DNA of 64,000 bases from Intestinimonas butyriciproducens (lineage in GTDB: Bacteria; Bacillota; Clostridia; Oscillospirales; Butyricicoccaceae): contig NZ_JACJKW010000004.1 in the NCBI RefSeq assembly GCF_016901775.1, positions 1-64,000 of the forward strand, given 5' to 3'. A program made the translations under genes and the position numbers. The notes below the pieces were generated by a model, which saw nothing but the letters and a program-made list of their open reading frames with translations, ran no database searches and had not been told where the DNA came from. This document shows, one piece after another, positions 5,089-52,101 of the stretch (position 1 is the first letter of the stretch; each line of letters begins with the position of its first letter).

Positions 5089-5101
5089 ATGCAGACATAG
5101 C

Positions 5102-5138
5102 AAAAAATCCCCCATTCTGGGGGATTTTTTTATTTTTT
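5102..5138 (+). terminator. Rho-independent terminator (AAAAAATCCCCCattcTGGGGGATTTTTTT).
   Basis: Perfect stem followed by a T-run, immediately after the stop of the SCP gene. Confidence 0.8.
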
Positions 5139-5274
5139 GTCTCTGTCCGAGATAAGTATTGGTGAATGAAAATATACACATACATAGGATAATTATCCCC
5201 TTTGACCTGAAAGGTATTTTAGACTAACAAATGTCGTAAATTTTCGTTCATGGAGTGAGACAAGTAGGGGCAAA

Positions 5275-5286
5275 TATGCTATAATG
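5275..5286 (+). promoter_or_regulatory. Candidate extended -10 element (TGcTATAAT) for the alpha/beta hydrolase gene.
   Basis: Motif only, in an AT-rich region 80 nt upstream of the start codon. Weak. Confidence 0.3.
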
Positions 5287-5365
5287 CAGGTGTAATTGGA
5301 ATATTTTGCTGTTTTTCCGTCTATATACAAAGACAAACTTGAATTTGGCGAGGTGAGTATACAAC

Positions 5366-6295
5366 ATGAAGATTCATAATGCACAGTATAAAATTGATGA
5401 TAGCAGTATTTTGAACTACTATGAGGTTGGAACCGAAAAAAACAAACTATTACTGCTTCATGCCCAGGGAACAAACTCTTGTAGCTTCTATAGTGTTGTT
5501 ACAAAACTCGCAAAGCACTATCATGTGTACCTGGTAGATTATTACGGACACGGAAAGAGTTCCCACAATCCAGAAAAATACAATCTGGTCAGTATCGGCA
5601 ACGACATTATGGACTTTATTGAAAATGTGATTTTTGATTCTGTTGCCGTGTTGGGTCATTCATCGGGTGGGCTGATTGCAGCATACATTGCAGCACACTC
5701 TCCCAGATGCTCCAAACTAATATTGGAAGACCCTCCGTTCTTCTCAAGCTGGGGCGAAAGAAGATATCATACATACAATTACAAAGATTTATCCTCTGTC
5801 TGCCATAATTTCCTTTTACAGGATGTGGAAAAGGATTTCGTCTATTACTATTTCAAGAATCAGTATTGCTGGAATTTCTTTCCCGATAAATCCAGAGAAA
5901 CTGTCAGAGAAAAACTGAGTGGTTTTGCATTGAAATACCGAACCAAACATCCCGACAAAAATCTGAAAGTTCTGTTTTGGCCTAAAAAGTTTTTAGAAGG
6001 CTTTAATGGCCTGCAATATTATGACCCTCATTTTGGAGAAGCCTTTTATAACGATTCGTTCAATGACACTGTTGATTACAATGACCTTCTTTCTAAAATC
6101 AAATGCAAAACTCTGTTTATGAAAGCAAAGACAACGATTGGTGAAAATGGTTTGTTGCAAGGCGCATTGTCTGATGAAGATTTGCAGAGAGTCAATGCCT
6201 TGATTGAAAATATGAAAATCCAGCAATTTGATTGTGGGCACGGTATTCATACAGAAAAGGCAAACCAGTTTGTGGAAGCAATAATTTCAATTTGA
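5366..6295 (+). CDS. Alpha/beta-fold hydrolase (309 aa), inside a low-GC island.
   Basis: GHSSGG nucleophile elbow and HGKSSH motif. Good RBS GGCGAGGTGAG. Local GC is far below the surrounding 60%. Confidence 0.75.
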   Translation: MKIHNAQYKIDDSSILNYYEVGTEKNKLLLLHAQGTNSCSFYSVVTKLAKHYHVYLVDYYGHGKSSHNPEKYNLVSIGNDIMDFIENVIFDSVAVLGHSSGGLIAAYIAAHSPRCSKLILEDPPFFSSWGERRYHTYNYKDLSSVCHNFLLQDVEKDFVYYYFKNQYCWNFFPDKSRETVREKLSGFALKYRTKHPDKNLKVLFWPKKFLEGFNGLQYYDPHFGEAFYNDSFNDTVDYNDLLSKIKCKTLFMKAKTTIGENGLLQGALSDEDLQRVNALIENMKIQQFDCGHGIHTEKANQFVEAIISI

Positions 6296-6442
6296 CCAAT
6301 TGGGATTTGTTGAACTGAATAGCATATATCCCATAGGAGCAAGGTTGAAATATACCTTGCTCCTTTTCGTTGGGCATTCATAAAAAATGAATAAAAAGGT
6401 CAGTTATACACACCAATACTTATCTAATACAGAGATTATTTT

Positions 6443-7243: not shown

Positions 7244-9257
7244 TTATTCGTTGCCCACATACCGATAGAGCCAGCTCTTGATCTCCTTCAGGCGGCGCAG
7301 GCGGTGACGGGGCTTGCCCGAACGGGACAGCTCGTGGTTCTCCCCTTTGAAAATGCACATCCGGGAGGGAACGCCGTTGAGCTGCAAAGCGGTATACATG
7401 GAAATGCCTTCGGGCATCCAGCACCGGTAGTCCTCTGTGCTGTTGATGAAGAGGGTGGGGGTGCGGGCCTTGTCGGCAAATTTCATGGGGGACTGATCCC
7501 ACATCTTGTACATATCGGTGAAGGGCGTGGCCTGGACTTCCCGCAGGTCAAAGCTGAGGCCGATGTCGCAGGTGCCGAACAGGGTGATCCAGCTGGCGAT
7601 GGACCGCTGGGAAGCTGCTGCCTTGAACCGGTGGGTGTGGCCGATGATCCAGTTGCACATAAAGCCGCCGTAGGAGCCGCCCAGCACGCCCAGACGCTCC
7701 TTGTCGATGGCCGGGTACTTTTCCAGCACCACATCCACAAACTGCATCAGATCCTCATAATCGATGGTGCCATAGCGGCCGGCGATGTTGGCAAACTTGT
7801 CCCCCCTTCCACCGGAACCGGTGGGATTGCAGAACATGACAAAGCAGCCGTCAGAAGCCATGGTCTGCATCTGGTGGAAGAAGCAGGTGCCGAAGGTGGC
7901 CCGGGGGCCGCCGTGGATGTCCAGCATGGCGGGATAGGTCTTGCTTTCATCGTAGTCCTTGGGCAGAAGCACCCAGCCTTCGATGGTATTCCCCTCTTTG
8001 TTCACAAAGGTCAGGGGCTGGGGTGTGGCCACATATTTGCCCTTGAGAGCGTTTTTATTGAAGCCGGTGACTTTTTTCTGGCTTCCGTCCTTTTCCAGGC
8101 GGTAAACTTCCTGCAGATCGTTTCCGGCAAAGCCCACAGTGAAGATTTTGCCATCCCGGATGTCGAAAAAGTCCACCGAACAGTCTTCCCCGGTGAGCAC
8201 CTCCGGCTCTTTCCCGGGCTGCCAACGGTAGAGCACGCTGTAATGGGCCCGGGCCGAGACATAATAGAGGGCATCCTCACAGGCTTTCATGTGGATACCG
8301 CTGCCATAGCGGCAGTCGCTGCCGGGATTTCCGCCGAAGTCCTCGGTTTCGGCCACCGGCACGGCCATAACAGGCTCTCCTCCTGCAAGGGGGATGGAAT
8401 AGAGGTTTGTGCCCCCGAAGCGCATCCAATCCTCCCCGTGTTCCTCGGCGGAGAAGATCAGCTGATCGCCCACAAAGGCCAGCGAACCCAAACCGCTGAA
8501 TCGGTCGGGCCCGAACAGCTCTTTTCTTTCCCCGGTTTCCAGATCGTAGAGGTACAGGCCGGAGTGCATATTCAGCTTTTTGTCGGTAAGGGCCCCGGCA
8601 TAGGCCAGAGTCTTTCCGTCGGGGGACAGGGTGAAACCCCGGGTTTCAAACATGGGCTCGGTCACAGGCCGGAGTTTCTTCCGCTTCACATCATACAGCC
8701 ACAGCCGGTTGCGCTTTTTGTTCACAAAGCCCCGGCCGTTGAACCAGAAGGGAGCCTCGTCACATACCTGGTAGTCCTTTTCCTCCTGGTAGTCCAGAAG
8801 GGCACAGCGGCGTTTTTCCCCCTTGAGGGATTCAAAATCCGGCCTGGCGTTGTCGTGGACAGCGGTGATGAGATAGAGCCCTTCCCGCACCAGATGGGCG
8901 CTGGCTCCCTGCAAAGGCAGGCGGAAGCACTCCCGGCTTTCGCCTCCGTCCAGGGGCAGCTGGTAAAAGACGGTGAGCAGTTCTCCATTTTCCACCCGCT
9001 TTTTGTCCTTCTTTTCCCGGATGGCAGGGAAAATGACGCTTTTGTCCCCAAAGAGGGCAAAGCTGCGCACATCCCCATGGGAGGTCAGGGGCCGGGCCGC
9101 GCCGGTTTTGCAATCCACCAGATACAGGTCGGAGCGGTAGCAGTTGTCCTCCAGATCGGCCTTGGCGGCGATCACCAGGGCCCGGTCATCGGGAAGCAGC
9201 TTGAGTCCGGACAAAAATTTATAATCCTGCAAGTCTGTGTCCAGTATTCGTTCCAAG
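7244..9257 (-). CDS. S9-family serine peptidase (prolyl oligopeptidase / acylaminoacyl-peptidase-like), paralog 1.
   Basis: GGSYGGFM nucleophile motif and beta-propeller N-terminus. The TTG start at 9257 (RBS AGGAGGG) was chosen because LERILDTDL aligns with MERIQIDDF of the paralog. Confidence 0.8.
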
Positions 9258-10169: not shown

Positions 10170-12167
10170 TTACTTCATGTAATGGTCAAACCAGTTTGTG
10201 ATCTCCCGCAGACGGCGCACCCGGTGCTTGGGTTTGCCGGAACGGGACAGCTCATGGTTCTCCCCGTGGAACAGGCACAGACGGGTGTCCACACCGTGCA
10301 TCCGCAGGGCGGTCATCATCTGAATGGCATCGGCCATCCAGCAGCGATAGTCCTCATCGGACTGGATGAACAAAGTGGGGGTCTTGGCCTTGTCGGCATA
10401 CTTCAGGGGAGAGTTGTTCCACATCCGGTCCATGTTGGTCCAGGGATCGGCCATCATGGCGGACAGGTTGTGGTAGTAGCCGATGTCGGTGGTCAGGCAC
10501 TTGCTCAGGTAGTTGGAGATGGAACGCTGGGAAGCCACCGCCGCAAACCGGTGGGTGTGGCCCACGATCCAGTTGGCCATAAAGCCGCCATAGGAGCCGC
10601 CGGCCATGCCCACACGCTTCTCATCGATCTGGGGATATTTTTCCAGCACCTTGTCGGTGAACTCCATCAGGTCGTTATAATCCCAGACGCCGTAGTGCTC
10701 GCCGCGGATATTGGCAAAGTCGTTGCCCTTGCCGTCGCCGCCACGGGGGTTGCAATAAAAGACGAAATAGCCCTCGTTGGCCCAGAACTGCATCTCATGG
10801 AAGAAGGTCTCGCCGTAAACCGCCTTGGGGCCGCCGTGGACATTGAGGATCGCAGGATACTTCTTGGAAGGATCGTAGTCCACCGGCTCCAGGATCCAGC
10901 CGTCGATGTCCACGCCGTCTTTATCGGTAAAGTGCATATATTTGGGCTCTACCACGCTGTGGGTCTGGAGGTATTCCTGGTTGAAGCTGGTCAGGCAGGT
11001 TTCCTCGCCGCCTTCCTTGCAGCAATAGATCTCCTGCAGGCCATTACAGCGCATACCCACATAATAGAAGGTATCGCCCACCTTCTGGAAGCAGTCCACG
11101 CTGCCGTGGACATCGGGGGAAATGGTCTTGACCTGGCCCTTTTCATCCAGCTTGCGGATGAAAGAATTGAAGCCCATGGTCTCCAGGAAGTAGAAACCGT
11201 CCTTTTCGCCCTTGTTGGAAACGCCTCCGCCATAGCGGCAGTCGCTGCCCACACTGGAGCCCAGGCTGGTGTCCAGATCGGCAAGCTCCTGCATCTTGCC
11301 GGTATTCACATCCACATTGAAGAAGATGGGATTTTCGCTGGAGCCATAGCGCTGGCCGGTGGTGGCGGCCATGAGGATGTGATCGCCTACGAAATCGGCG
11401 GCCTGGACCCGGTATTTGCCGCCCAGATCCATTTCACGGCTCTCGCCGCTCTTCAGATCATACACAAACAACCGGCTGACCTGCTCGTCCATCCACTGAT
11501 AGTCGCTGCCATAGTACAGAGCCAGACCCAGCTCCTTGCTGTATTTCAGGCCGGTGACCTGCATATAGGGGCCGGTGATGGCCTTCTGCTCATCCTTGCA
11601 GATGTCGCAGAGATAGACACGGCCGCGCTTTTTGTTGACGATGCCCTTGCCGTTGAACCAGAAGGGAAGCTCATCGAAGATCTCGTAGTCCTTTTCTTCC
11701 CGGATCTTCTCCATCATCTCTTCCTTCTCGGCCCCATCCAGACCTTCGGTGGTCATGGCATAGTTGTCATACTGGCCGATGCACAGGAATTTGCCGTCGC
11801 CCAGCACGATCAGGTTACTGGCGGGGAAAGGCAGGGCAAAATATTCCTCGGCTTCGCCGCCCTGGGTGGAGATCTTGTTGAACACGGTGTAATGGAAGCC
11901 TTCGTCGGCCATGGCCTTATATTTTCCGGTGCGGTCGCCGGGGAAGAGGATATGCTCTTCATCCAGCCAGTACAGGCTCTTTTCTGCGCCGCCGCTTGTC
12001 AGCTTGCGCACTTTTCCATTTTCCAGCAGGTGGATATGGGACACATATTTGTTGGCCTTCACCTGGGCCTGTGTGACCACAAAGGCCAGCTTCTCGCCGC
12101 TGGGGGAAGCCTGCAGCTGGGACAGCATTTTCACCTGACTGAAATCGTCGATCTGAATCCGTTCCAT
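10170..12167 (-). CDS. S9-family serine peptidase, paralog 2.
   Basis: GGSYGGFM motif. 665 aa. GGAGG RBS. Confidence 0.85.
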   Translation of the reverse strand: MERIQIDDFSQVKMLSQLQASPSGEKLAFVVTQAQVKANKYVSHIHLLENGKVRKLTSGGAEKSLYWLDEEHILFPGDRTGKYKAMADEGFHYTVFNKISTQGGEAEEYFALPFPASNLIVLGDGKFLCIGQYDNYAMTTEGLDGAEKEEMMEKIREEKDYEIFDELPFWFNGKGIVNKKRGRVYLCDICKDEQKAITGPYMQVTGLKYSKELGLALYYGSDYQWMDEQVSRLFVYDLKSGESREMDLGGKYRVQAADFVGDHILMAATTGQRYGSSENPIFFNVDVNTGKMQELADLDTSLGSSVGSDCRYGGGVSNKGEKDGFYFLETMGFNSFIRKLDEKGQVKTISPDVHGSVDCFQKVGDTFYYVGMRCNGLQEIYCCKEGGEETCLTSFNQEYLQTHSVVEPKYMHFTDKDGVDIDGWILEPVDYDPSKKYPAILNVHGGPKAVYGETFFHEMQFWANEGYFVFYCNPRGGDGKGNDFANIRGEHYGVWDYNDLMEFTDKVLEKYPQIDEKRVGMAGGSYGGFMANWIVGHTHRFAAVASQRSISNYLSKCLTTDIGYYHNLSAMMADPWTNMDRMWNNSPLKYADKAKTPTLFIQSDEDYRCWMADAIQMMTALRMHGVDTRLCLFHGENHELSRSGKPKHRVRRLREITNWFDHYMK

Positions 12168-12249
12168 GGATCATCGTCCTCCTTCACAAAAATCGGTGTG
12201 ATTTTACCGCTGTTGTCTGTACACTATTATACCTTTCTCTTTCCCCAAA

Positions 12250-12276
12250 GACAAGGCGGGATTTTACTGCCTTGTC
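12250..12276. repeat. 27-bp hairpin GACAAGGCGGGATTTTACTGCCTTGTC; left direct repeat flanking repeat copy B.
   Basis: Identical copy at 12523-12549. Confidence 0.8.
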
Positions 12277-12326
12277 ACAAACTGCCCGAAACCTATCCTG
12301 CAACAAGAGATGGTTTACTCTATTCT

Positions 12327-12514
12327 TCATCCATCCGCAAAAAGCCGCGACCTGTGCGTGGCTTTTTGCACCTATCAAGGGCGGGGTGACCCCGCAGGCA
12401 AACATTCTTTGCCCGGGCGTACACAACCTACCGGAGCAAAGAAAAAATGGGAGCGGCGGCTCGCCGCCAGACCCTTGCAAAGACTCGAAAAAGTGGCTTC
12501 CGCCACTTTTTCGA
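12327..12514 (+). repeat. Terminator-associated intergenic repeat, copy B (long form).
   Basis: Contains the 5' hairpin GCAAAAAGCC...GGCTTTTTGC and the 3' hairpin GAAAAAGTGGC...GCCACTTTTTC. Shares a 95-bp internal module with copy A. Confidence 0.8.
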
Positions 12515-12522
12515 AACGCTGA

Positions 12523-12549
12523 GACAAGGCGGGATTTTACTGCCTTGTC
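12523..12549. repeat. Right copy of the 27-bp hairpin direct repeat flanking copy B.
   Basis: Identical to 12250-12276. Overlaps the stop codon of the serine hydrolase. Confidence 0.8.
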
Positions 12550-13930
12550 AGGATGCGTCCGCCGGTGCGCACGCCCCAGACCCCTCGTCCTTCTTCCCGG
12601 AGAAGCAGGATATCGCTCTGGGAAAATTCCCCGGGCAGGATGATCAGATCGTGCCCGGCCATGATGAACTGCCGTTCCTTGCCGCCCATGGTCAGGTGGA
12701 GATCCCCGTTTTCCCAGGTGAAGGTGACCTCGTTGCCTTCGGCACTCGCAAACTTGCCCAGGCAGCTCTTCTTTTCCTCTTCGCTCCAGCCGGCGTCCTG
12801 CCAGGTTTTCATGGGCGCGGGCACAGCGGCTCCGGTGACCCAGCGAAGGGCTTCCTCGGCCACCCGGCTGACCGGCACGCCGCTGGTGTTGCACAGCACC
12901 ACAACGCCGGCTTCCAGCTCAGGAGAGAAGGCAAAATGGCTGGAGATGCCGGTCATGCTGCCACCGTGGCCCACCATGCGCACCCCTTCCAGGTCACTCA
13001 TGGCCATGCCGTAGCCATACCACTGGCCGTAGCGGTAATGCTGCCGGGGCTTCATCATCTCCCGGATGCCATAGGGGCTGAGCAGGCGGCCATGCTCCCC
13101 TTTGCCCTCGTTGAGATACATCTGCACATATTTCTTCATGCTGCCCAGGCTGGCCTTGACGGCGCCGCCGCCCATGAGCACAAAAGCGTTGTCATAGTAA
13201 TCCCGGCACCAGTGACGCTTGCCGTCTTTGTGGAAATAGAGCTTTGTGCTGTTAGGGTCCTGGGCCGGGGCGATAAACAGGCCGGTGGCCCGGTCCATCC
13301 CCAGGGGGGCGAACACATTCTTTTCCAGATAGTCCTGGAAGGAATTTTCCCCGCCATAGCGGCGGATGATCTCAGACAGCAGGCCGTAGCTGTCGTTGCT
13401 GTAACTCATGTACTCCCCGGGCAGACCGGTGCGGGCTTCTTCTTCGTCCAAACCCTTGCACACCCGGCGGCAGCCCTCCATGGCCAGACCCGGATGGGGG
13501 CCGATCTCGGCTTTGCCCTCCTGCCAGATGCCCATTGACCGGGCCACCTCTTCCACCAGCATCCGCCGCTTGGGAAGAAATCCCCCGGCGTGGCTGAGCA
13601 GATGGGCCACCGTCACCGGCTGGGCGGCGTGGGCGTTGTGGAACTCCGGCAGATACCGGCTCACCGGCCCCCATAGGTCGATCACTCCCTTCTCCGCCAG
13701 CTGCATGATGCTCAGGGCCGTAAAGGACTTGGACACCGACGCCAGACCAAAAATGGTGTTTTCGTCAATGACCGTCTGATTTTCCCCATCCCGGAAGCCA
13801 AAAAATTTCTGATACAGGGTCACATTCTTGTCGACCACCGCCATTGCCAGACCGGCAGCCTCATAATGGGCCATCATCTTTTCGATCCACTGTTCCAGAG
13901 GGCGGATGCCCTCCATAGTGCCTTTGTTCA
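12537..13930 (-). CDS. Serine hydrolase of the beta-lactamase / D-aminopeptidase family (class C-like).
   Basis: SxxK motif (ASVSKSF). About 464 aa. Start assigned to the GTG at 13930 with AAAGGAG RBS. The ORF track begins upstream at 13973. Confidence 0.7.
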
Positions 13931-14203: not shown

Positions 14204-14329
14204 ATCAATCTGCAAAAAGCCGGGACCTGTGCGTGGCTTTTTGCACCTCTCAAGGGGCAAGTGTGCGCCAAAGGCGTGCATGCAGGCCCTTGCAAAAACT
14301 CGAAAAAGTGGCTTTTGCCACTTTTTCGA
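14204..14329 (+). repeat. Terminator-associated intergenic repeat, copy C (short form).
   Basis: Same end hairpins as copy B. Downstream of the MATE gene. Confidence 0.8.
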
Positions 14330-14428
14330 CACCCCTCCCAGGACGAAAACCACGCCTGGGAGGGAGTACACTGATGGCATAGGCCGGAGCCTTCCCAGCG
14401 GGAGCCATGGGAAAAGGCCCGGGAAAAC

Positions 14429-26854: not shown

Positions 26855-26887
26855 AAAAAACCGGGAGCCCAAGGCTCCCGGTTTTTT
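26855..26887. terminator. Bidirectional terminator (AAAAAACCGGGAGCCcaaGGCTCCCGGTTTTTT).
   Basis: Perfect hairpin with flanking A- and T-runs, downstream of the minus-strand hutD-like gene. Confidence 0.7.
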
Positions 26888-28154: not shown

Positions 28155-29270
28155 ATGTCCAAAGTACTGGGATTTTTCCGGCGGGAGCCGGTGCTGTCCA
28201 TTGCGGCCCTGGCCGCGGTGATCACGGCCTTTTTTGCCCCATTTTCCCTGAAGGCCATAGGGGAAGCCATCGACTGGCGGGTGCTGGCCCTTCTCTTCTG
28301 CCTGATGGCGGTGGTGCAGGGCCTGGAAGGGGCCGGGCTGTTTGAAAAATTGGCCCAGAATGCCATCCGGCGGGCCGGGAGCCTACGGGGACTATGCGCC
28401 GTTTTGGTGCTTTTGTGCTTCTTTTCCTCCATGCTGGTGACAAACGATGTAGCCCTTCTGACCTTTGTTCCTTTCGCCGTGCTGGTCCTCAAGGGAGCGG
28501 GCTTTGAAAAGCACCTTTTGTATGTGGTGGTGCTCCAGACGGCGGCAGCCAACCTGGGAAGTATGGCCACTCCGGTGGGCAATCCCCAGAACCTTTTCCT
28601 TTTCTCCCGCTACCAGATGAGCGCCCCCATGTTTTTTTCCCGTGTTCTGCCGGTGGCCGGGCTTTCCCTTCTTTTGCTGCTTCTTCTGCTGCTGCCCATT
28701 CCCCGGGGCCGCCTTTCGGTGCAGAGCGGCCAGAGTCCCCGGCCTCTTTCCTTCAAAAGCATCCTGCCCTATGGCATCCTCTTTGCCCTGTGCCTGTGCA
28801 CCGTTTTGCATCTGGTGCCCTATCCCATCACCTTTTTGCTGGTGCTTTTCTATCTTGCCGCCAAAGACCGTCCCATCCTGCGCCGTGTGGACTACGGCCT
28901 GCTTCTGACCTTTGTGTTCTTTTTCCTCTTTGTGGGCAATCTGGGGGCCATTCCCCCGGTGAAGCAGGCGCTGTATCAGGCCATTCAGGGCCGGGAGATG
29001 ATCGCCTGCACCCTGATGAGCCAGGTGATCAGCAATGTGCCCGCCGCTGTGCTGCTTTCCGGCTTCACCGAAAAGGGCGGCGCGCTGCTGCTGGGCTCCA
29101 ACCTGGGAGGGCTGGGCACGCTGGTGGCCTCCCTGGCCAGCCTGATCTCCTTCCGCATTTACGGCAAAGCCCAGCCGGAGCAAAAGGGCCGGTATCTTCT
29201 GCTTTTCACCCTGGTGAATGTGCTGCTGCTCCTGTTGCTGCTTCCTCTGTGCCTGCTGCTGGACCGGTAA
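28155..29270 (+). CDS. ArsB/NhaD-superfamily anion permease (citrate-transporter-like).
   Basis: 371 aa polytopic membrane protein with two homologous halves. Confidence 0.65.
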   Translation: MSKVLGFFRREPVLSIAALAAVITAFFAPFSLKAIGEAIDWRVLALLFCLMAVVQGLEGAGLFEKLAQNAIRRAGSLRGLCAVLVLLCFFSSMLVTNDVALLTFVPFAVLVLKGAGFEKHLLYVVVLQTAAANLGSMATPVGNPQNLFLFSRYQMSAPMFFSRVLPVAGLSLLLLLLLLLPIPRGRLSVQSGQSPRPLSFKSILPYGILFALCLCTVLHLVPYPITFLLVLFYLAAKDRPILRRVDYGLLLTFVFFFLFVGNLGAIPPVKQALYQAIQGREMIACTLMSQVISNVPAAVLLSGFTEKGGALLLGSNLGGLGTLVASLASLISFRIYGKAQPEQKGRYLLLFTLVNVLLLLLLLPLCLLLDR

Positions 29271-29275
29271 ACACA

Positions 29276-29301
29276 AAAAGCGCCCTTTGGGCGCTTTTTG
29301 T
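29276..29301. terminator. Bidirectional terminator AAAAAGCGCCCtttGGGCGCTTTTT (left copy of a duplicated 25-mer).
   Basis: Identical 25-mer at 29946-29972. Confidence 0.75.
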
Positions 29302-29498
29302 TATTGCTCCACTGTAAAAATTTCTTCAATGGACACCCCAAACACCTTGGCAATGTTCCAGGCCAGCACCAAAGAAGGGTTATATCGTCCCTTCTCCAGA
29401 TTTCCTATGGTCTCCCGCCGGACTCCCACCAGTTTTGCCAGTTCTTCCTGCTTCATGTTGTGACGGGCCCGATATTCTTTGATCCTATTTCTGATCAC
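29301..29498 (-). CDS. XRE-family (Cro/C1-type) HTH transcriptional regulator, about 65 aa.
   Basis: HTH motif [27 protein letters not shown] start at 29498 with GGGGG RBS. An alternative ATG lies at 29528. Confidence 0.75.
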
Positions 29499-29856
29499 AT
29501 TCCAGCCCCCATCTCTCTTTGAATCCATAATAGGCAGCAGACAAGGCGTACACCACCACAGACACGATCCATCCCCAAGCCAGGCCGGTGATCAGCGCCT
29601 TGTTCTCTTTCTGGGAAGCCAGGAAGAAGGCGCCCAACGAAACCAGAGCCATCGCAATCATACCGCAATAAAAGGCTCGGGAAGCCGACCGGTCCATATA
29701 TTCTTCCAACATCTCATCTGACTGAACAAAGAAATATTCAAAATTCACCGCAAAGGCAAAAAAAGATAAAAAAGCTTTTGACTCGGTAAACAAACCAATC
29801 AATCCCAGAAGAGAAAGCAACCCCATCATGCCATACAGTATGCGTCTTGATTTCAT
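29485..29856 (-). CDS. DUF3796-like small membrane protein; partner of the XRE regulator.
   Basis: 123 aa, 4 TM segments. ATG at 29856 with AGGAGG RBS. Overlaps the XRE start by 14 nt. The ORF track begins upstream at 29913. Confidence 0.65.
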
Positions 29857-29874
29857 AGAAATGCCTCCTTTGAT

Positions 29875-29915
29875 ATGTGGTATATTTCTATCTTTATGAT
29901 ATAAATATACCACAT
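29875..29915. promoter_or_regulatory. Perfect 11-bp inverted repeat ATGTGGTATAT(N19)ATATACCACAT in the AT-rich promoter region of the DUF3796-XRE pair; candidate operator.
   Basis: Read directly. 19-59 nt upstream of the DUF3796 start. Confidence 0.5.
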
Positions 29916-29945
29916 TTATTTCTTATGATCAAGACTATATTGGTC

Positions 29946-29974
29946 CTTATGAAAAAAAGCGCCCTTTGGGCGCT
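29946..29974. terminator. Second copy of the terminator AAAAAGCGCCCtttGGGCGCTTTTT (right flank of the XRE cassette, downstream of the EamA gene).
   Basis: Identical 25-mer to 29277-29301. Confidence 0.7.
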
Positions 29975-29977
29975 TTT

Positions 29978-30826
29978 TTATATTTCCTTTTTCAGACTGC
30001 CCCAGATGGCGCAGGCAAAGACCAGGCTGCCCCCCAGCACTTCCCGGAGAGATGGGATCTCTCTCAAAAACAAAGCCGCCAGCAAAATGCCGTATACCGG
30101 CTCCAGGCAGGAAACCACGCTGGCCGTCTGGGCCCGGATGGTGCGCAGGCTGCCGATAAAGAGGGTATGGGACAGAGCGGTGAACACCACTCCCAGCAGC
30201 AAAAGTCCGCCCCAATCGGAAAGAGAGAGGGCAGGACGCAGCCACAAAAAGCAAGGAGTTAAAATCACCGCTGCCCACATCTGTTCCCAGAAGGAGACCA
30301 TGGCCGCGGGAAAGTTTCCCACCCATTTCTGATTGAACAGCCCCAGCAGAGCATAGCTGAAACCGGACAAAAGCCCCCACAAGGCCCCCAGCCACAGCGT
30401 TCCCTCCCCTTCCAGAGGCGTGGCCAGCAAAATGCCGCCGAAGGCCACAAAAGCCAGCACCACATCCCCTCCCCGGGGCTTTTTCCCGGTAAAGAGGGGC
30501 TCCAGAAAGGTGACGAATAGGGGGAAGGCCGAAAAAGAGATCAGACCCATGGCCACAGTGGACACCTGAATGGCCTGATAAAAAGTGCTCCAGTGAAAGG
30601 CCAGCAATGCGCCCAAGGCAGCCAGGGCCGCCTTGGTGCGCCCCGGCACAGCCCAGGGGTTTTCTCCCCGGATCTTCAGCCAAAGAAGGAGAGACAGGGC
30701 GGAAAAAACCACCCTGCCCCAGGTGATGATCAGGGAATGCTGGCGTATCACCTTGCCGAACAGCCCTGAAAGGCCAAAGAGCAGCACCGCCATATGGAGC
30801 TGCCAGAGCCCCGGCCGTTTTTTCAT
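29978..30826 (-). CDS. EamA/DMT-family transporter.
   Basis: 282 aa, 10 TM segments, two EamA repeats. Confidence 0.8.
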   Translation of the reverse strand: MKKRPGLWQLHMAVLLFGLSGLFGKVIRQHSLIITWGRVVFSALSLLLWLKIRGENPWAVPGRTKAALAALGALLAFHWSTFYQAIQVSTVAMGLISFSAFPLFVTFLEPLFTGKKPRGGDVVLAFVAFGGILLATPLEGEGTLWLGALWGLLSGFSYALLGLFNQKWVGNFPAAMVSFWEQMWAAVILTPCFLWLRPALSLSDWGGLLLLGVVFTALSHTLFIGSLRTIRAQTASVVSCLEPVYGILLAALFLREIPSLREVLGGSLVFACAIWGSLKKEI

Positions 30827-30829
30827 GGT

Positions 30830-32155
30830 TTAGCCCTTCTTCTTTTCCAAAAATGCATAGACCGGCAGACCGATCACCGTCAGACCAATGCCCACCAGCG
30901 ACTGGATGGGATCGGAGATCACCGTGCTGACGAGGATATAGATGGCTCCCAGCGCACCCACAATGGGCACCACCGGATAGAGGGGCACCTGATAGGGGCC
31001 TTTTTTGTCCGGGTGTTTTTTCCGCAGGATAAAGACGCCCAGAACACCCATGGTAAAGAAGATCCACAGCACAAAGACCAGCAGGTCAGTGAGGGTGTTG
31101 AAGGAGCCGGACAGGATATAGATGGCCGCCAGAGCGCACTGGAAGATCAGAGCGCTGGCCGGTGTACCGTATTTGGGATGCAGAGCGCCCAGGACCCGGC
31201 TGAACGGCAGCTGGCCCCGCTGGCCCATGGCCAGAGGCACCCGGGCCGCCGTCATGGTATAGCCATTCATGGCGCCGAACACCGACACCATAATGCCGGC
31301 GGTGATAAATGCGGCGCCTTTTTCGCCGAACAGCACCACTGCTGCCGCAGCGCCGGGCGTTGCCGCACCGGCCACCTGGTCATAAGGCAGCACCATAAAG
31401 ACCGCCAGATTGAAGACCACATACACCGCCACCACAAACAAAACGCCGAAAGAAATGACCCGAGGCAGATCCTTGCCCGGATTTTTCAGTTCTCCCGCCA
31501 TATTGGTCACGCCGATCCAGCCGTCATAGGCCCACAAAGTACCCAGAATAGCAGCCCCCAGTCCGGCTGCACCGGCAGAGGTTCCCGCGGCCCAATTCAG
31601 CTCGCCGCCGGAAAGAAGGCCGAAGGCAATAATGGCCGCCACCGGGATCAGCTTGCCGAAGGTGGCCACCGTCTGGATGATGCCGCCATATTTTGTGGAC
31701 AGAATATTCATCCACAGCACAAAAGCCATCACACAAATGGCCAGAGCCTTCTGCTGCCAGGGGCCCATGGGAAAAAATACCGCCGCATAGGTGGCAAAGG
31801 CAATGGCCTGGGCGGCAATGGAAGCCGGATAGGAAATCACCGACTGAACCCATCCCAGGAGGAATCCCCATTTTTTGCCATACAGTTCCTCCAGATATAC
31901 ATACAATCCTCCGGTCTTGGGGATGGCCGAAGCGATCTCCGCCACCGACAAAGCCGCAGCCAGCGTGATAATGCCGCCAGCCGCCCAGGCGATCAAAGCC
32001 ATCGGCAGACTCCCGGCGCTTTCCAGCACCACGCCGGGCTTGAGGAAGATGCCGCTGCCGATGATCATGCCCACCACAATGGCCAGGGCTTCCAAAAAGG
32101 TTACTGATTTTTTCAGCTGTCCCTCCGAAGAGTGTCCATTTTCTTTTTTTCTCAT
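30830..32155 (-). CDS. APC-family amino acid permease.
   Basis: About 441 aa, 12 TM segments. Start at 32155 (RBS AGGAGAGGG) or at 32185 as in the ORF track. Confidence 0.75.
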   Translation of the reverse strand: MRKKENGHSSEGQLKKSVTFLEALAIVVGMIIGSGIFLKPGVVLESAGSLPMALIAWAAGGIITLAAALSVAEIASAIPKTGGLYVYLEELYGKKWGFLLGWVQSVISYPASIAAQAIAFATYAAVFFPMGPWQQKALAICVMAFVLWMNILSTKYGGIIQTVATFGKLIPVAAIIAFGLLSGGELNWAAGTSAGAAGLGAAILGTLWAYDGWIGVTNMAGELKNPGKDLPRVISFGVLFVVAVYVVFNLAVFMVLPYDQVAGAATPGAAAAVVLFGEKGAAFITAGIMVSVFGAMNGYTMTAARVPLAMGQRGQLPFSRVLGALHPKYGTPASALIFQCALAAIYILSGSFNTLTDLLVFVLWIFFTMGVLGVFILRKKHPDKKGPYQVPLYPVVPIVGALGAIYILVSTVISDPIQSLVGIGLTVIGLPVYAFLEKKKG

Positions 32156-47803: not shown

Positions 47804-47804
47804 C

Positions 47805-47906
47805 GGGCGGAGTGCCTCCGCTGCCATACTGCGCAGCGCCAAGTCTTGTGAAGGAAACTTCCTTGCTTCACGCTGCGCGGCGGCATTTGCTGCACATGGC
47901 TTCACC
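47805..47906. repeat. Structured direct repeat, unit 1 (about 102 bp), upstream of the gltX promoter.
   Basis: About 85% identical to unit 2 at 47984-48085. Contains hairpin GGCGGAGTGCCTCCGC and a long imperfect hairpin with an inner stem AAGGAA/TTCCTT. Confidence 0.75.
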
Positions 47907-47983
47907 TCAACTAGAGCGGCGTACCACCGGGGGCATACTGGCCCTCCCCGAACTCCAGTGGCACAGGAGCCTGTCATTTGGTC

Positions 47984-48085
47984 GGGCAGAGTGCCTCCGC
48001 TGTCACACTGCGCAGCGCCAAGTCTTGTGGAGAAAACTTCTCTATATCACGCTGCGCAGCGGCATTTGCTGCACAAGGTTTTACC
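47984..48085. repeat. Structured direct repeat, unit 2; the inner stem is changed to GAGAA/TTCTC (compensatory).
   Basis: Begins about 38 nt after the ribokinase stop. Confidence 0.75.
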
Positions 48086-48122
48086 TTAGTGCAAGCTGCT
48101 GCACCTCCCAGCCAGGGGAGGG

Positions 48123-49184: not shown

Positions 49185-49203
49185 GAAACCATAAAAATCC
49201 CCC
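49185..49203. repeat. 19-bp direct repeat AAATCCCCCGGCGCTGCAA, left flank of repeat copy D.
   Basis: Second copy at 49406-49424, where it forms the 5' half of the gap terminator hairpin. Confidence 0.7.
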
Positions 49204-49275
49204 GGCGCTGCAAGATATAGCAAAGAGAAAACCGATCACAGAATAATACAGTATCAGGCGCCCTTTTGCCCTTTT

Positions 49276-49400
49276 TTCAATCTGCAAAAAGCGGCGACCT
49301 GTGCGTCGGTTTTTGCACCTCTCAAGAGACCGGTGTGCGCCAAGGGCGTGCGCCGTGCCTCTTGCAAAAACTGGAAAAAGCGGCTAAGCCGCTTTTTCGA
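49276..49400 (+). repeat. Terminator-associated intergenic repeat, copy D (short form). Its end hairpins carry covarying substitutions.
   Basis: The 3' hairpin GAAAAAGCGGC..GCCGCTTTTTC differs from GAAAAAGTGGC..GCCACTTTTTC of the other copies by a compensatory pair. Confidence 0.8.
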
Positions 49401-49405
49401 AAGGC

Positions 49406-49424
49406 AAATCCCCCGGCGCTGCAA
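49406..49424. repeat. Right copy of the 19-bp direct repeat flanking copy D.
   Basis: Identical to 49185-49203. Confidence 0.7.
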
Positions 49425-49451
49425 TGTGCGCCGGGGGATTGAAAATGGCTC

Positions 49452-50720: not shown

Positions 50721-51860
50721 TTGGAAAATACCGCTCTGGGGGACATGACCTGGTTCCCCGCCGCCGATGACTATCTGATGATCTGCAGCCCGTCGGGCCG
50801 CATCCTCTTTGTCACAAGCAGCCTGCGTTTTCAGCTGGAAGAGGACCTGGTAGGCCGCTCTCTCAACGACATTTTCCCCGATTCCCTGGCCGCTCAGATC
50901 GTCACCCTGGCCCATGAGGGCCAGAGCCATTCCTTTCACACAAAGCTCCAGGGCAAAGCCGTCCGGTGCAGTATGACCCCCAAAGAGGGGAATATGCTCA
51001 TCACCGTCTTTTTCGCCCAGGAAAACCATCCCCCGGCCATGGCCCTCAGCGCCGCCGAGCTGCTCAGCCGGGAAATCAGCAGCAGCCTGGGCACCATGTT
51101 TGCCGCCTGGGATGCCCTGCCCCCCGCCCAGGACCAAAAAAGCCAATACGCCAAAAGCGTGCTGCGCCAAGGGATGTACCGGCTGATGCGCATGGGCCGC
51201 AATCTGCTGGACTGCGCCCGGGCCGAAAGCGGCCAGCTGGAGCTGAATGTGCGCCAGAGTGATCTGTGCCAGCTTGTGCGGCAGCTGTGCCAGCGGGTAG
51301 AGCCCATGGCCGAAGAAGTGGGCATTCCCTTTTCCTGGGACTGCCCGGAGGAACCCCTGTTCTGCCCCTTCGACCGGGAGCGGGTGGAGCGGGTGATCCT
51401 GGGTCTGATTTCCAATTCCATGAAATACACCCGGCAGAAAAACCAGATGCGGCTGGTGCTCACCAAACGGGAGGACAACGCCGTGATCATCCTGGCCGAC
51501 CGGGGCCGGGGCATTCCCGCTTCGGTGCTGCCCCATCTTTTCAGCCGTCCCCCCGAATCCTCCCTGTCCCGGGGACTGATGGTGGGAGGGGCCGGCTACA
51601 GCCTGATGCTGGCCCGGGCGGTGATGCTGCTCCACGGCGGCACCTGCGTCATTTCCAGCGTTCCCGATGAGGGCACCACCGTCACCCTGTCCCTGCCCCT
51701 GCACCCTTCCACCCCCTATCTGTCCCTGGGCGCTCCGCCCCCGGACTATGCCAGCGGCTTCGACCATGTGCTGCTGGAACTCTCCACCGCCTTGCCCGCT
51801 TCTTTCTATAAAGAGGAGCCCAAAAAATCAAAGTCCTATCCTGCTTCCCCGGAGCAATAA
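50721..51860 (+). CDS. Orphan cytoplasmic histidine-kinase-like protein (PAS-like N-terminus, DHp-like region, intact HATPase_c). The H-box His appears to be replaced by Arg.
   Basis: TTG start with AAGGAGG RBS. N box NSMKYT, G1 box DRGRGIP, G2 box GGAGYSLMLA. The DHp region reads LSREISSSLGTM where SHELRTPL is expected. Confidence 0.7.
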   Translation: MENTALGDMTWFPAADDYLMICSPSGRILFVTSSLRFQLEEDLVGRSLNDIFPDSLAAQIVTLAHEGQSHSFHTKLQGKAVRCSMTPKEGNMLITVFFAQENHPPAMALSAAELLSREISSSLGTMFAAWDALPPAQDQKSQYAKSVLRQGMYRLMRMGRNLLDCARAESGQLELNVRQSDLCQLVRQLCQRVEPMAEEVGIPFSWDCPEEPLFCPFDRERVERVILGLISNSMKYTRQKNQMRLVLTKREDNAVIILADRGRGIPASVLPHLFSRPPESSLSRGLMVGGAGYSLMLARAVMLLHGGTCVISSVPDEGTTVTLSLPLHPSTPYLSLGAPPPDYASGFDHVLLELSTALPASFYKEEPKKSKSYPASPEQ

Positions 51861-51887
51861 AAAAAGAGCCTTTCGGCTCTTTTTTTA
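51859..51887. terminator. Terminator AAAAAAAGAGCCtttcGGCTCTTTTTTT (left copy of a duplicated 34-bp segment).
   Basis: The same sequence recurs at 52066-52102 on the other side of repeat copy E. Confidence 0.75.
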
Positions 51888-51890
51888 ACA

Positions 51891-52025
51891 TGTCGAAAAA
51901 GTGGCCTGGGCCACTTTTTCGAGTTTTGCAAGAAGCTGCATGCACGCCTGTGGCGCACACTGGCTTCTTGATCGGTGCAAAAAGCCACGCACAGGTCGCG
52001 GCTTTTTGCAGATTGATGAAAGATA
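51891..52025 (-). repeat. Terminator-associated intergenic repeat, copy E (short form, inverted).
   Basis: Reverse complement matches copies C and D end to end. Confidence 0.8.
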
Positions 52026-52072
52026 AAACAAAAGAATTTCTCACATGATATGTTTTTTCATCGTCTACGCAA

Positions 52073-52101
52073 TAAAAAAGAGCCTTTCGGCTCTTTTTTT
52101 A
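52073..52101. terminator. Second copy of terminator AAAAAAGAGCCtttcGGCTCTTTTTTT (tatD side).
   Basis: Direct duplicate of 51859-51887. Confidence 0.75.

Follow-up and report, generated by a model that had tools for sequence, protein, structure and literature searches.

How did a complete two-gene operon come to lie between two identical copies of a terminator hairpin, in the interval between two convergent genes? This question is raised by a 64,000-nt stretch of Intestinimonas butyriciproducens DNA (contig NZ_JACJKW010000004.1, positions 1 to 64,000; hereafter the window), in which a small cassette encoding a DUF3796 membrane protein and an XRE-type regulator separates a permease gene from an EamA-family transporter gene. 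The first-pass annotation of this DNA regarded the module as a mobile or recombined cassette. By comparing the locus with related genomes and metagenomic contigs, we conclude that it is probably foreign DNA, an islet that entered a bidirectional terminator in a single insertion event, duplicated the whole hairpin in doing so, and then spread via homologous recombination and not by transposition. The argument uses the following segments of the window.

29300-29953: inserted segment of 654 bp (679 bp with one hairpin copy), missing in five related contigs.
29275-29299, both strands: hairpin copy 1, AAAAAGCGCCCTTTGGGCGCTTTTT, with a perfect 13-bp stem (29273-29285/29289-29301).
29954-29978, both strands: hairpin copy 2, the identical 25-mer, predicted terminator of the EamA gene (minus strand).
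28155-29270, plus strand: left flank, CitMHS-family permease gene, 371 aa (open reading frame, ORF; Pfam CitMHS 5.5e-32), convergent with the cassette.
29978-30826, minus strand: right flank, EamA-family transporter gene, 282 aa (ORF; Pfam EamA 5.6e-30).

The same site is found without the cassette in related genomes. A permease protein search of species-representative genomes recovered L001, L002 ('Ruminococcaceae bacterium AM07-15') and L003, three loci with 94% identity at the protein level. In each of them the permease and EamA genes converge directly on a single hairpin, and there is no cassette. The L002 junction, ccggtaaagaAAAAAGCGCCCTTTGGGCGCTTTTTttatgcttcc, equals the window left flank followed by one hairpin and the window right flank. 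Scanning metagenomes with the EamA protein added two further empty sites, L033 and L034. The flanks of the empty sites are the outer flanks of the two hairpin copies in the window. The first-pass annotation had reasoned that a cassette always present in orthologous intervals, between diverged flanks, would speak against its proposal; instead, the five orthologous permease-EamA intervals recovered by these searches are all empty and hold one hairpin each. Since the palindrome is single in the empty allele and double in the occupied one, the complete terminator appears to have been duplicated at the insertion.

The cassette itself was found in 23 contigs from independent samples and assemblers, obtained by searching for exact matches to three proteins, namely DUF3796, the representative of its 99% cluster and the 65-aa XRE protein. 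All of these contigs hold it at the permease-EamA site, both hairpins are present wherever a contig extends to them, and every copy with 99% identity or more is at this one locus; the window has a single copy. The flanks form two clades. Clade A has window-like flanks with 97-100% pairwise identity, and clade B, which holds all five empty sites, is ~88-90% identical to clade A and 91-98% identical internally. Clade-B flanks also occur together with the cassette, in L011 and L022 (EamA 88.3% and 88.8%, respectively; permease 91.3% in L022), and the cassettes of these two contigs are 99.2% (5/654 differences) and 99.8% (1/654) identical to that of the window. Near-identity of the cassette despite ~11-12% flank divergence rules out its vertical inheritance since the split of the two clades. 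In a DUF3796 protein search, the 99% cluster was followed next by homologues at 74% identity; an older, diverged form of the cassette is thus not on record. The base composition is atypical as well: the GC content is 0.44 in the cassette and 0.574 in the window, and GC content at third codon positions (GC3) is 0.55-0.56 in the cassette genes and 0.65-0.80 in neighbouring genes. The presence or absence at a conserved site, the atypical GC and GC3, and the cross-lineage identity far above that of the flanks thus show that the cassette is a foreign islet recently exchanged between lineages, with the properties of a horizontally acquired genomic islet.

The same comparison bears on the reverse history, in which the cassette and both hairpins would be ancestral and the one-hairpin relatives would have lost the cassette by recombination or slippage between the 25-bp direct repeats. 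Repeats of 25-31 bp suit precise deletion, the empty sites are the exact product expected from it, and the cassette is present in all sampled window-type contigs; a 601-bp contig described below, L063, could be the reciprocal circle. However, an ancestral cassette is difficult to reconcile with copies that are almost invariant across clades with ~11% flank difference, with the missing homologues in the range of 74-99%, and with atypical GC/GC3, and the origin of two identical terminators would remain unexplained. We consider this history very improbable; as the sole explanation it is largely refuted, and deletion may act as a secondary process.

Transfer between the clades can be followed in L022, which spans both flanks. 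Its sequence was scored at the sites that discriminate the window from L033, its closest empty-site relative. Beside hairpin 1 (29101-29300), 13 of the 16 discriminating sites of L022 have the window state; in the remainder of the permease gene, just 2-4 of ~25 sites per 200 bp do. Just past hairpin 2 it is mostly L033-type, and hairpin 2 itself has a stem variant, GCACCC, that is shared with the L033 empty site and is followed by clade-B flank. The change from donor to recipient sequence lies in the A-run that borders hairpin 2, within a shared stretch of at most 9 nt, which is too short to be attributed to an assembler chimera. The simplest reading of these sites is a ~0.9-kb homologous-recombination tract that would begin in the final ~200 bp of the permease gene and reach as far as hairpin 2, the sole stretch of perfect identity beside a very divergent EamA 3' end. 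Homology-facilitated illegitimate recombination is reportedly known in transformable bacteria. Further window-type patches are found in L022 at window positions 30701-31500, in an amino-acid permease gene (13 of 19 sites in 31301-31500), suggesting that inter-clade recombination is frequent across the region in general.

The two alternatives offered by the first-pass annotation therefore fare differently. A recombined cassette agrees with 99.2-99.8% cassette identity on ~88-91% flanks and with the L022 tract; a mobile one, in the sense of self-transposition, does not agree with the lack of a transposase and of terminal inverted repeats or with the single locus. With genomic islets exchanged by homologous recombination the cassette shares presence or absence at a fixed site, atypical GC, identity above that of the flanks and, in L022, donor flank. 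It differs from such islets in that a complete terminator palindrome was duplicated and that one recombination endpoint lies in a 25-bp identity island.

The hairpins deserve a closer description. The 25-mer occurs exactly twice on the plus strand of the window, no copy would be expected by chance (100 dinucleotide-preserving shuffles), and no further terminator within three mismatches of it exists across the 64 kb. The first-pass annotation was right about two exact 25-bp copies, and its coordinates for them (29277-29301 and 29948-29972) are off by 2 and 6 nt. The copies match beyond the 25-mer, at 29 of 31 positions over 31 nt. Copy 1 starts 4 nt 3' of the permease stop codon (29268-29270) and ends 1 nt short of the XRE stop codon (29301-29303), and copy 2 shares one base with the EamA stop codon (29978-29980); the stop codons of the convergent genes thus lie 0-4 nt from the hairpins. 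Each stem has a run of five to seven A on its 5' side and a run of five to six T on its 3' side, giving a U-run on each transcribed strand. The RNA of both copies on both strands folds with -17 to -23.6 kcal/mol (z -4.7 to -6.3; copy 1, -23.6 on the plus and -21.0 kcal/mol on the minus strand), and none of 200 shuffles folds as strongly for either copy on either strand. Because of the strong fold on both strands and the flanking A- and T-runs, the hairpins look like bidirectional intrinsic terminators, and copy 1 is predicted to serve the permease gene on the plus strand and the DUF3796-XRE operon on the minus strand.

Simple terminators with an A-run, a GC stem and a T-run are common in the window, and one may ask whether the two hairpins are independent look-alikes that arose by chance or convergence, or even an assembly artefact. 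This is scarcely credible given the absence of any other near match in 64 kb, the recovery of the arrangement in 23 independent contigs, the one copy of the same sequence at the empty sites, and the short switch stretch (at most 9 nt) in L022. As a separate observation, the 3-nt loop of the palindrome (29286-29288 and 29965-29967 in the window) alternates between TTT and AAA among strains (CAAA in L003), as seen when L001, L003, L009, L011, L022 and L034 are compared with the window, and in some contigs the loop differs between the two hairpin copies. These flips suggest frequent loop inversion or template switching inside the palindrome.

We propose the following course of events. A compact operon consisting of a promoter/operator, DUF3796 and XRE would have entered, on one occasion, the single bidirectional terminator between the convergent permease and EamA genes. 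The insertion would have duplicated the entire 25-26-bp palindrome, which would then behave like a target-site duplication. In this way the permease gene, the new operon and the EamA gene would each keep a terminator, and copy 2, as a predicted terminator, would shield the cassette promoter from EamA read-through. The break would have been staggered across the palindrome, for example if both strands were nicked at the base of the extruded hairpin and the gaps were then filled in. Subsequently, the two direct hairpin copies may recombine, leading to deletion or circularisation of the unit.

A duplication of this kind invites comparison with known mobile elements. The 25-bp duplication and the five one-copy empty sites correspond to a target-site duplication, as in transposable elements. 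Target duplications of insertion sequence (IS) elements are typically 2-14 bp, far below 25 bp. Other hallmarks of transposable elements, namely terminal inverted repeats, a transposase and multiple insertion sites, were not found. Candidate transposon ends were rejected, the left 60 nt scoring 10 with the reverse complement of the right 60 nt at a shuffle mean of 12.9, and no transposase or integrase ORF was detected inside or beside the cassette by the ORF list and Pfam. Integron gene cassettes consist of a promoterless ORF with an imperfect attC hairpin that has conserved core sites, in an array beside intI. This assignment was also rejected: the cassette has its own predicted promoter, no integrase ORF is nearby, and the hairpin is a perfect A-run/GC/T-run palindrome that is present in the empty site as well.

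The nearest precedents for the choice of target are IS1272 and TnSha1 (IS1182 family) of staphylococci, which insert into terminator hairpins with little primary-sequence specificity and may carry a passenger gene, sh-fabI (PMC4923244, PMC5678879). Those elements have a transposase, terminal inverted repeats, partial deletion of the hairpin and no target duplication, none of which applies to the cassette with its wholly duplicated hairpin. In CRISPR spacer integration by Cas1-Cas2, and in casposon integration, the strands are attacked at opposite repeat borders, so that the insert comes to lie between two ~25-35-bp palindromic copies. Repeat duplication by Cas1-Cas2 is the closest analogue in geometry, and in geometry only; no cas1, CRISPR array or leader was seen, and the inserts here are 0.2-0.65 kb and not spacers. 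Our literature search found no paper on whole-terminator duplication at insertions.

The first-pass annotation had pointed out that a duplicated hairpin also flanks intergenic repeat elements of the window, and this was confirmed at 12249-12277/12522-12550, where the 29-nt hairpins are identical, and at 51860-51887/52074-52101, with hairpins of ~28-33 nt. In L001, L002 and L033, a repeat element lies between two stem-loop copies, AGACCGGAAGCC..GGCTTCCGGTCT, with the A-run on the left only and the T-run on the right only. We infer a staggered break across the palindrome, because the stem-loop is duplicated while the A- and T-runs stay single. No sequence is shared by the cassette and the repeat elements, and neither end of the cassette is similar to them.

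The core of the repeat family comprises two hairpins, TCGAAAAAGTGGC..GCCACTTTTTCGA and TGCAAAAAGCCACGCACAGGTCGCGGCTTTTTGC; the 45-55-nt tail behind them varies between copies. It is represented in the window at 12249-12550, 51860-52101, 14205-14332, 49192-49440 and 2741-2784, and in relatives in L001 (2140-2390), L002 (4500-4750), L033 (~6336-6440), L046 and L056. Several copies are bracketed by direct duplicates of the complete hairpin, 27-33 nt in length. No Rfam match was obtained for the family. Clean empty sites for the repeat elements were not found: L046 and L056 are occupied, L047 has a partial deletion, and a candidate empty site in the window (26856-26886) has a non-homologous left flank.

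One contig is relevant to excision. L063 (601 bp; ENA ERZ28633621, sample SAMD00291665) is a circular permutation of the cassette, in the order DUF3796 3' part, XRE, one hairpin, promoter and DUF3796 5' part. It covers 601 bp of the 679-bp unit, with 78 bp missing. Its junction is the one expected for an excised circle or a tandem duplication via recombination between the hairpin copies, both of which are possible. An equally good alternative is that an assembly with small k-mer size (k), from a sample that appears thinly covered, made a false join through the 25-bp repeat.

Taken with the repeat elements, this contig gives some room to a non-autonomous element resembling a MITE (miniature inverted-repeat transposable element) or an integron cassette. 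An enzyme acting in trans would cut across terminator hairpins, leaving 25-33-bp target duplications, would also move the repeat elements, and would excise the cassette as a one-hairpin circle. Whole-hairpin duplications around at least three other inserts (two in the window and the L001/L002/L033 element) would be accounted for, as would the L063 ends joined through one hairpin, like those of a circle or tandem copy, and the occurrence of DUF3796-XRE modules in many unrelated contexts, such as regions resembling integrative and conjugative elements (ICE), a plasmid beside a recombinase and a cob operon. We nevertheless regard such an element as unlikely. It would have to do without terminal inverted repeats, without similarity to the repeat elements and without a transposase or integrase; 23 of 23 copies at 99% identity or above occupy one locus, and other family members lack flanking repeats; the transfer seen in L022 brought ~200 bp of donor-type flank, as in ordinary homologous recombination; and L063, a contig of 601 bp from a sample that appears thinly covered, could be a small-k misjoin. 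In a more general form, terminator palindromes of this group of gut Clostridia may be structure-specific integration sites for an unrecognised mechanism with cuts at both bases of the extruded hairpin, which would duplicate the whole hairpin in the geometry of CRISPR repeat duplication; this is a rather doubtful proposition at present. Rather doubtful, too, is the extension by which the same hairpin mechanism would insert both ~190-250-bp repeat elements and promoter-bearing cassettes, with L063 as a possible trace of exit as a circle.

The preferred reading is thus a single insertion that duplicated the hairpin, followed by spread through homologous recombination. Several points weigh against it: i) the L022 junctions also fit one crossover by which a cassette circle joined the resident hairpin, although such an event would not explain the donor-type flank tract; ii) the left end of L011 stops 18 nt past hairpin 1, which leaves L022 as the one documented case of flank-anchored import; iii) all clade A contigs were obtained via cassette proteins, an ascertainment that biases the finding that cassette diversity within clade A is lower by roughly two-fold; iv) no enzyme that would make the duplication was found; v) other DUF3796-XRE modules, in six contexts, have no flanking repeats of 12 nt or longer; and vi) the promoter, terminator and operator functions named here are predictions. 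An exact EamA look-up for clade A empty sites, in a sampling that was not unbiased, returned the window's own contig alone.

What does the islet carry? In agreement with the first-pass annotation, the XRE regulator, the DUF3796 gene and an AT-rich region are present between the hairpin copies (ORFs, Pfam and composition), and the interval contains a predicted promoter/operator, DUF3796 and the 65-aa XRE gene only. Two tRNAs are all that Rfam recognizes in the window, and neither the cassette nor its surroundings gave a match. The components are listed below in the order of transcription.

29904-29932, minus strand: predicted sigma-70-type promoter with -35 TTGATC (29932-29927), a 17-nt spacer and an extended -10 TGgTATATT (29909-29904).
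29875-29915: inverted repeat, putative XRE operator, with arms 29875-29887 ATGTGGTATATTT / 29903-29915 AAATATACCACAT.
29485-29856, minus strand: DUF3796 small membrane protein (PF12676), 123 aa, first in the operon, with AAAGGAGG as the ribosome-binding site ahead of it.
29301-29498, minus strand: XRE/Cro-C1-type helix-turn-helix (HTH) regulator, HTH_3 (PF01381) 1.1e-17, 64.2 bits against a cut-off of 23, residues 16-70.

The XRE gene overlaps the 3' end of DUF3796 by 14 nt. Its start can be placed at GTG 29498, which gives 65 aa, or at ATG 29528, the start of the longest ORF, and gene callers report 65 or 75 aa. The XRE homologues of six other modules begin at the position of V11 in the window (MIKNRIKEYR...), that is, at GTG 29498, so that the regulator is most likely 65 aa long. 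DUF3796 matches its Pfam profile with 47.7 bits (cut-off 24.8) over profile positions 3-119 of 120. The AlphaFold2 (AF2) model, of moderate confidence (pLDDT 69), has four helices (2-23, 27-53, 56-78 and 84-121), and a fold search of the PDB with this model gave no match at E<=0.001.

The promoter, predicted by a consensus scan, lies on the minus strand 22 nt inward from hairpin 2. The perfect 11-bp inverted repeat described by the first-pass annotation is present, with ATGTGGTATAT at 29875-29885 and ATATACCACAT at 29905-29915; its arms are perfect over 13 nt and match at 17 of 18 positions over 18 nt. One arm overlaps the -10 box, and the second stops 5 nt upstream of the ribosome-binding site. 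The window contains no further exact copy of the 12-mer half-site TGTGGTATATTT. Comparison of the upstream regions of six DUF3796-XRE modules, with 61-74% DUF3796 identity and unrelated neighbourhoods, revealed that all six retain ATGTG(G/A)TATATTTAT and a distal arm ending in ...ACCACA (A[AG]AT[AT][TC]ACCACA). The motif cTTGAC is retained in five of the six, TG-TATATT is also conserved, and the DNA surrounding these motifs is unrelated among the modules. The same architecture, ATGTGATATATTTATATCATAAAGAGCGAAATATATCACAC, precedes a DUF3796-HTH pair on a Bacillus mycoides plasmid. The overlap with the -10 box and the conservation in six unrelated contexts and on this plasmid strongly support the operator proposed by the first-pass annotation; it is a well-supported inference that XRE represses its own operon through the conserved half-sites TGTGGTATAT(TT).

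The inverted repeat could also act as an RNA structure, with a fold of -18.8 kcal/mol. This candidate is less likely, as the arm in the -10 box would stay untranscribed and L018 shows two uncompensated differences in the arms. For these two reasons, a protein-binding site appears to be the better reading. Autorepressed XRE operons such as those of the controller C-proteins of restriction-modification systems and the HTH antitoxins of type II toxin-antitoxin modules likewise have a small HTH_3 protein, a two-gene organization and an inverted repeat over the -10 box. They differ from the cassette in that here the partner is the four-helix membrane protein DUF3796 and the regulator is the second gene. 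In addition, the centres of the cassette's half-sites are separated by 28 bp, an unusually large distance for a single dimer.

Modules of this type occur in a range of genomic contexts. Some lie in ICE-like regions, in the company of DUF3847, TTRAP and a gene for tetracycline ribosomal protection. Others are found at a TetR/ABC locus, between Pirin and HAD genes, within the cob operon of Hungatella, or between an SSF transporter and a Trp repressor. Identity of the XRE proteins amounts to 74-89% among the modules of Clostridia and 56% in Bacillus; for the DUF3796 proteins it is 61-74%. One homologue, P0014 (L012-L017), is 72% identical to the DUF3796 protein of the window and was found as one identical protein in 118 collection blocks, in at least two contexts beside ICE-type genes (DUF3847, TTRAP, resolvase, helicase and the tetracycline ribosomal-protection GTPase). 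In Hungatella hathewayi (L040-L042, 2413-3130), the module lies within the cobalamin operon, with the -35 box starting 12 nt after the cobS stop codon and no flanking duplication; the two CobU-like genes around it were considered as a duplication and proved to be distant paralogues. The module on the Bacillus mycoides plasmid adjoins a recombinase gene.

Searches of mobile genetic elements gave few matches. In phage DNA, no near or distant match to the cassette was found, and in plasmid DNA the sole match was a 59-bp stretch of the operator and 5' end on the Bacillus mycoides plasmid. No tblastn match was obtained in plasmids, and IMG/VR had no exact match to the operator or the junction. In Clostridioides difficile, a pair of DUF3796 and HTH genes is an indel between variants of Tn6189 (PMC11983580). 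That pair is the same module and likewise a presence/absence difference; it lies in a conjugative transposon, with no flanking repeats reported, whereas the module of the window is chromosomal, lies between housekeeping-type transporter genes and is accompanied by a duplicated terminator.

DUF3796 has no match in NCBIfam or PADLOC and none to a toxin, a defence protein or a solved fold, and our literature search found no study of its function. The XRE protein has generic HTH matches only in PADLOC and NCBIfam, below family cut-offs, the best of them to autorepressed regulators of the kind named above. Its weak sub-threshold matches to the antitoxins HipB, HigA and PezA, and the 14-nt gene overlap, recall a toxin-antitoxin architecture; the partner has no match to a known toxin family in NCBIfam or PADLOC. 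The pair is compact, comprising little more than what lies from promoter to stop codon. A toxin-antitoxin-like or other selfish role is possible, and we treat the pair as an autoregulated accessory module that often relocates.

Some other features of the window were recorded. The region of ~5100-6400 has the lowest GC content (0.35-0.38) and contains a 309-aa ORF (5366-6295, plus strand) flanked by terminator-like hairpins (5102-5130 and 6335-6364); possibly this region, too, is an acquired islet. Direct repeats at 7271-7784 and 10191-10704, ~490 bp with 72-73% identity and 2920 bp apart, are probably paralogous genes. Shorter direct repeats are found at 47804-47907 and 47983-48086 (104 nt, 87%) and at 3-49 and 111-157 (47 nt, 96%).

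In summary, the DUF3796-XRE cassette is a horizontally acquired islet with an unusual terminator-preserving target duplication. It provides a clean natural case of a small operon added without disturbing its neighbours, in which every transcription unit retains a predicted terminator. Occupied, empty and recombinant contigs together give a near base-level view of an islet crossing between lineages that are ~11% apart, with the conserved hairpin as one recombination endpoint. The conserved half-sites supply a putative operator, present twice, for an uncharacterised pair that is widespread on ICE-like elements, plasmids and chromosomes of Clostridia and Bacilli. Finally, the same whole-hairpin duplication around unrelated repeats raises the possibility of an undescribed hairpin-directed insertion process, and the repeat elements may be of greater interest than the cassette itself.

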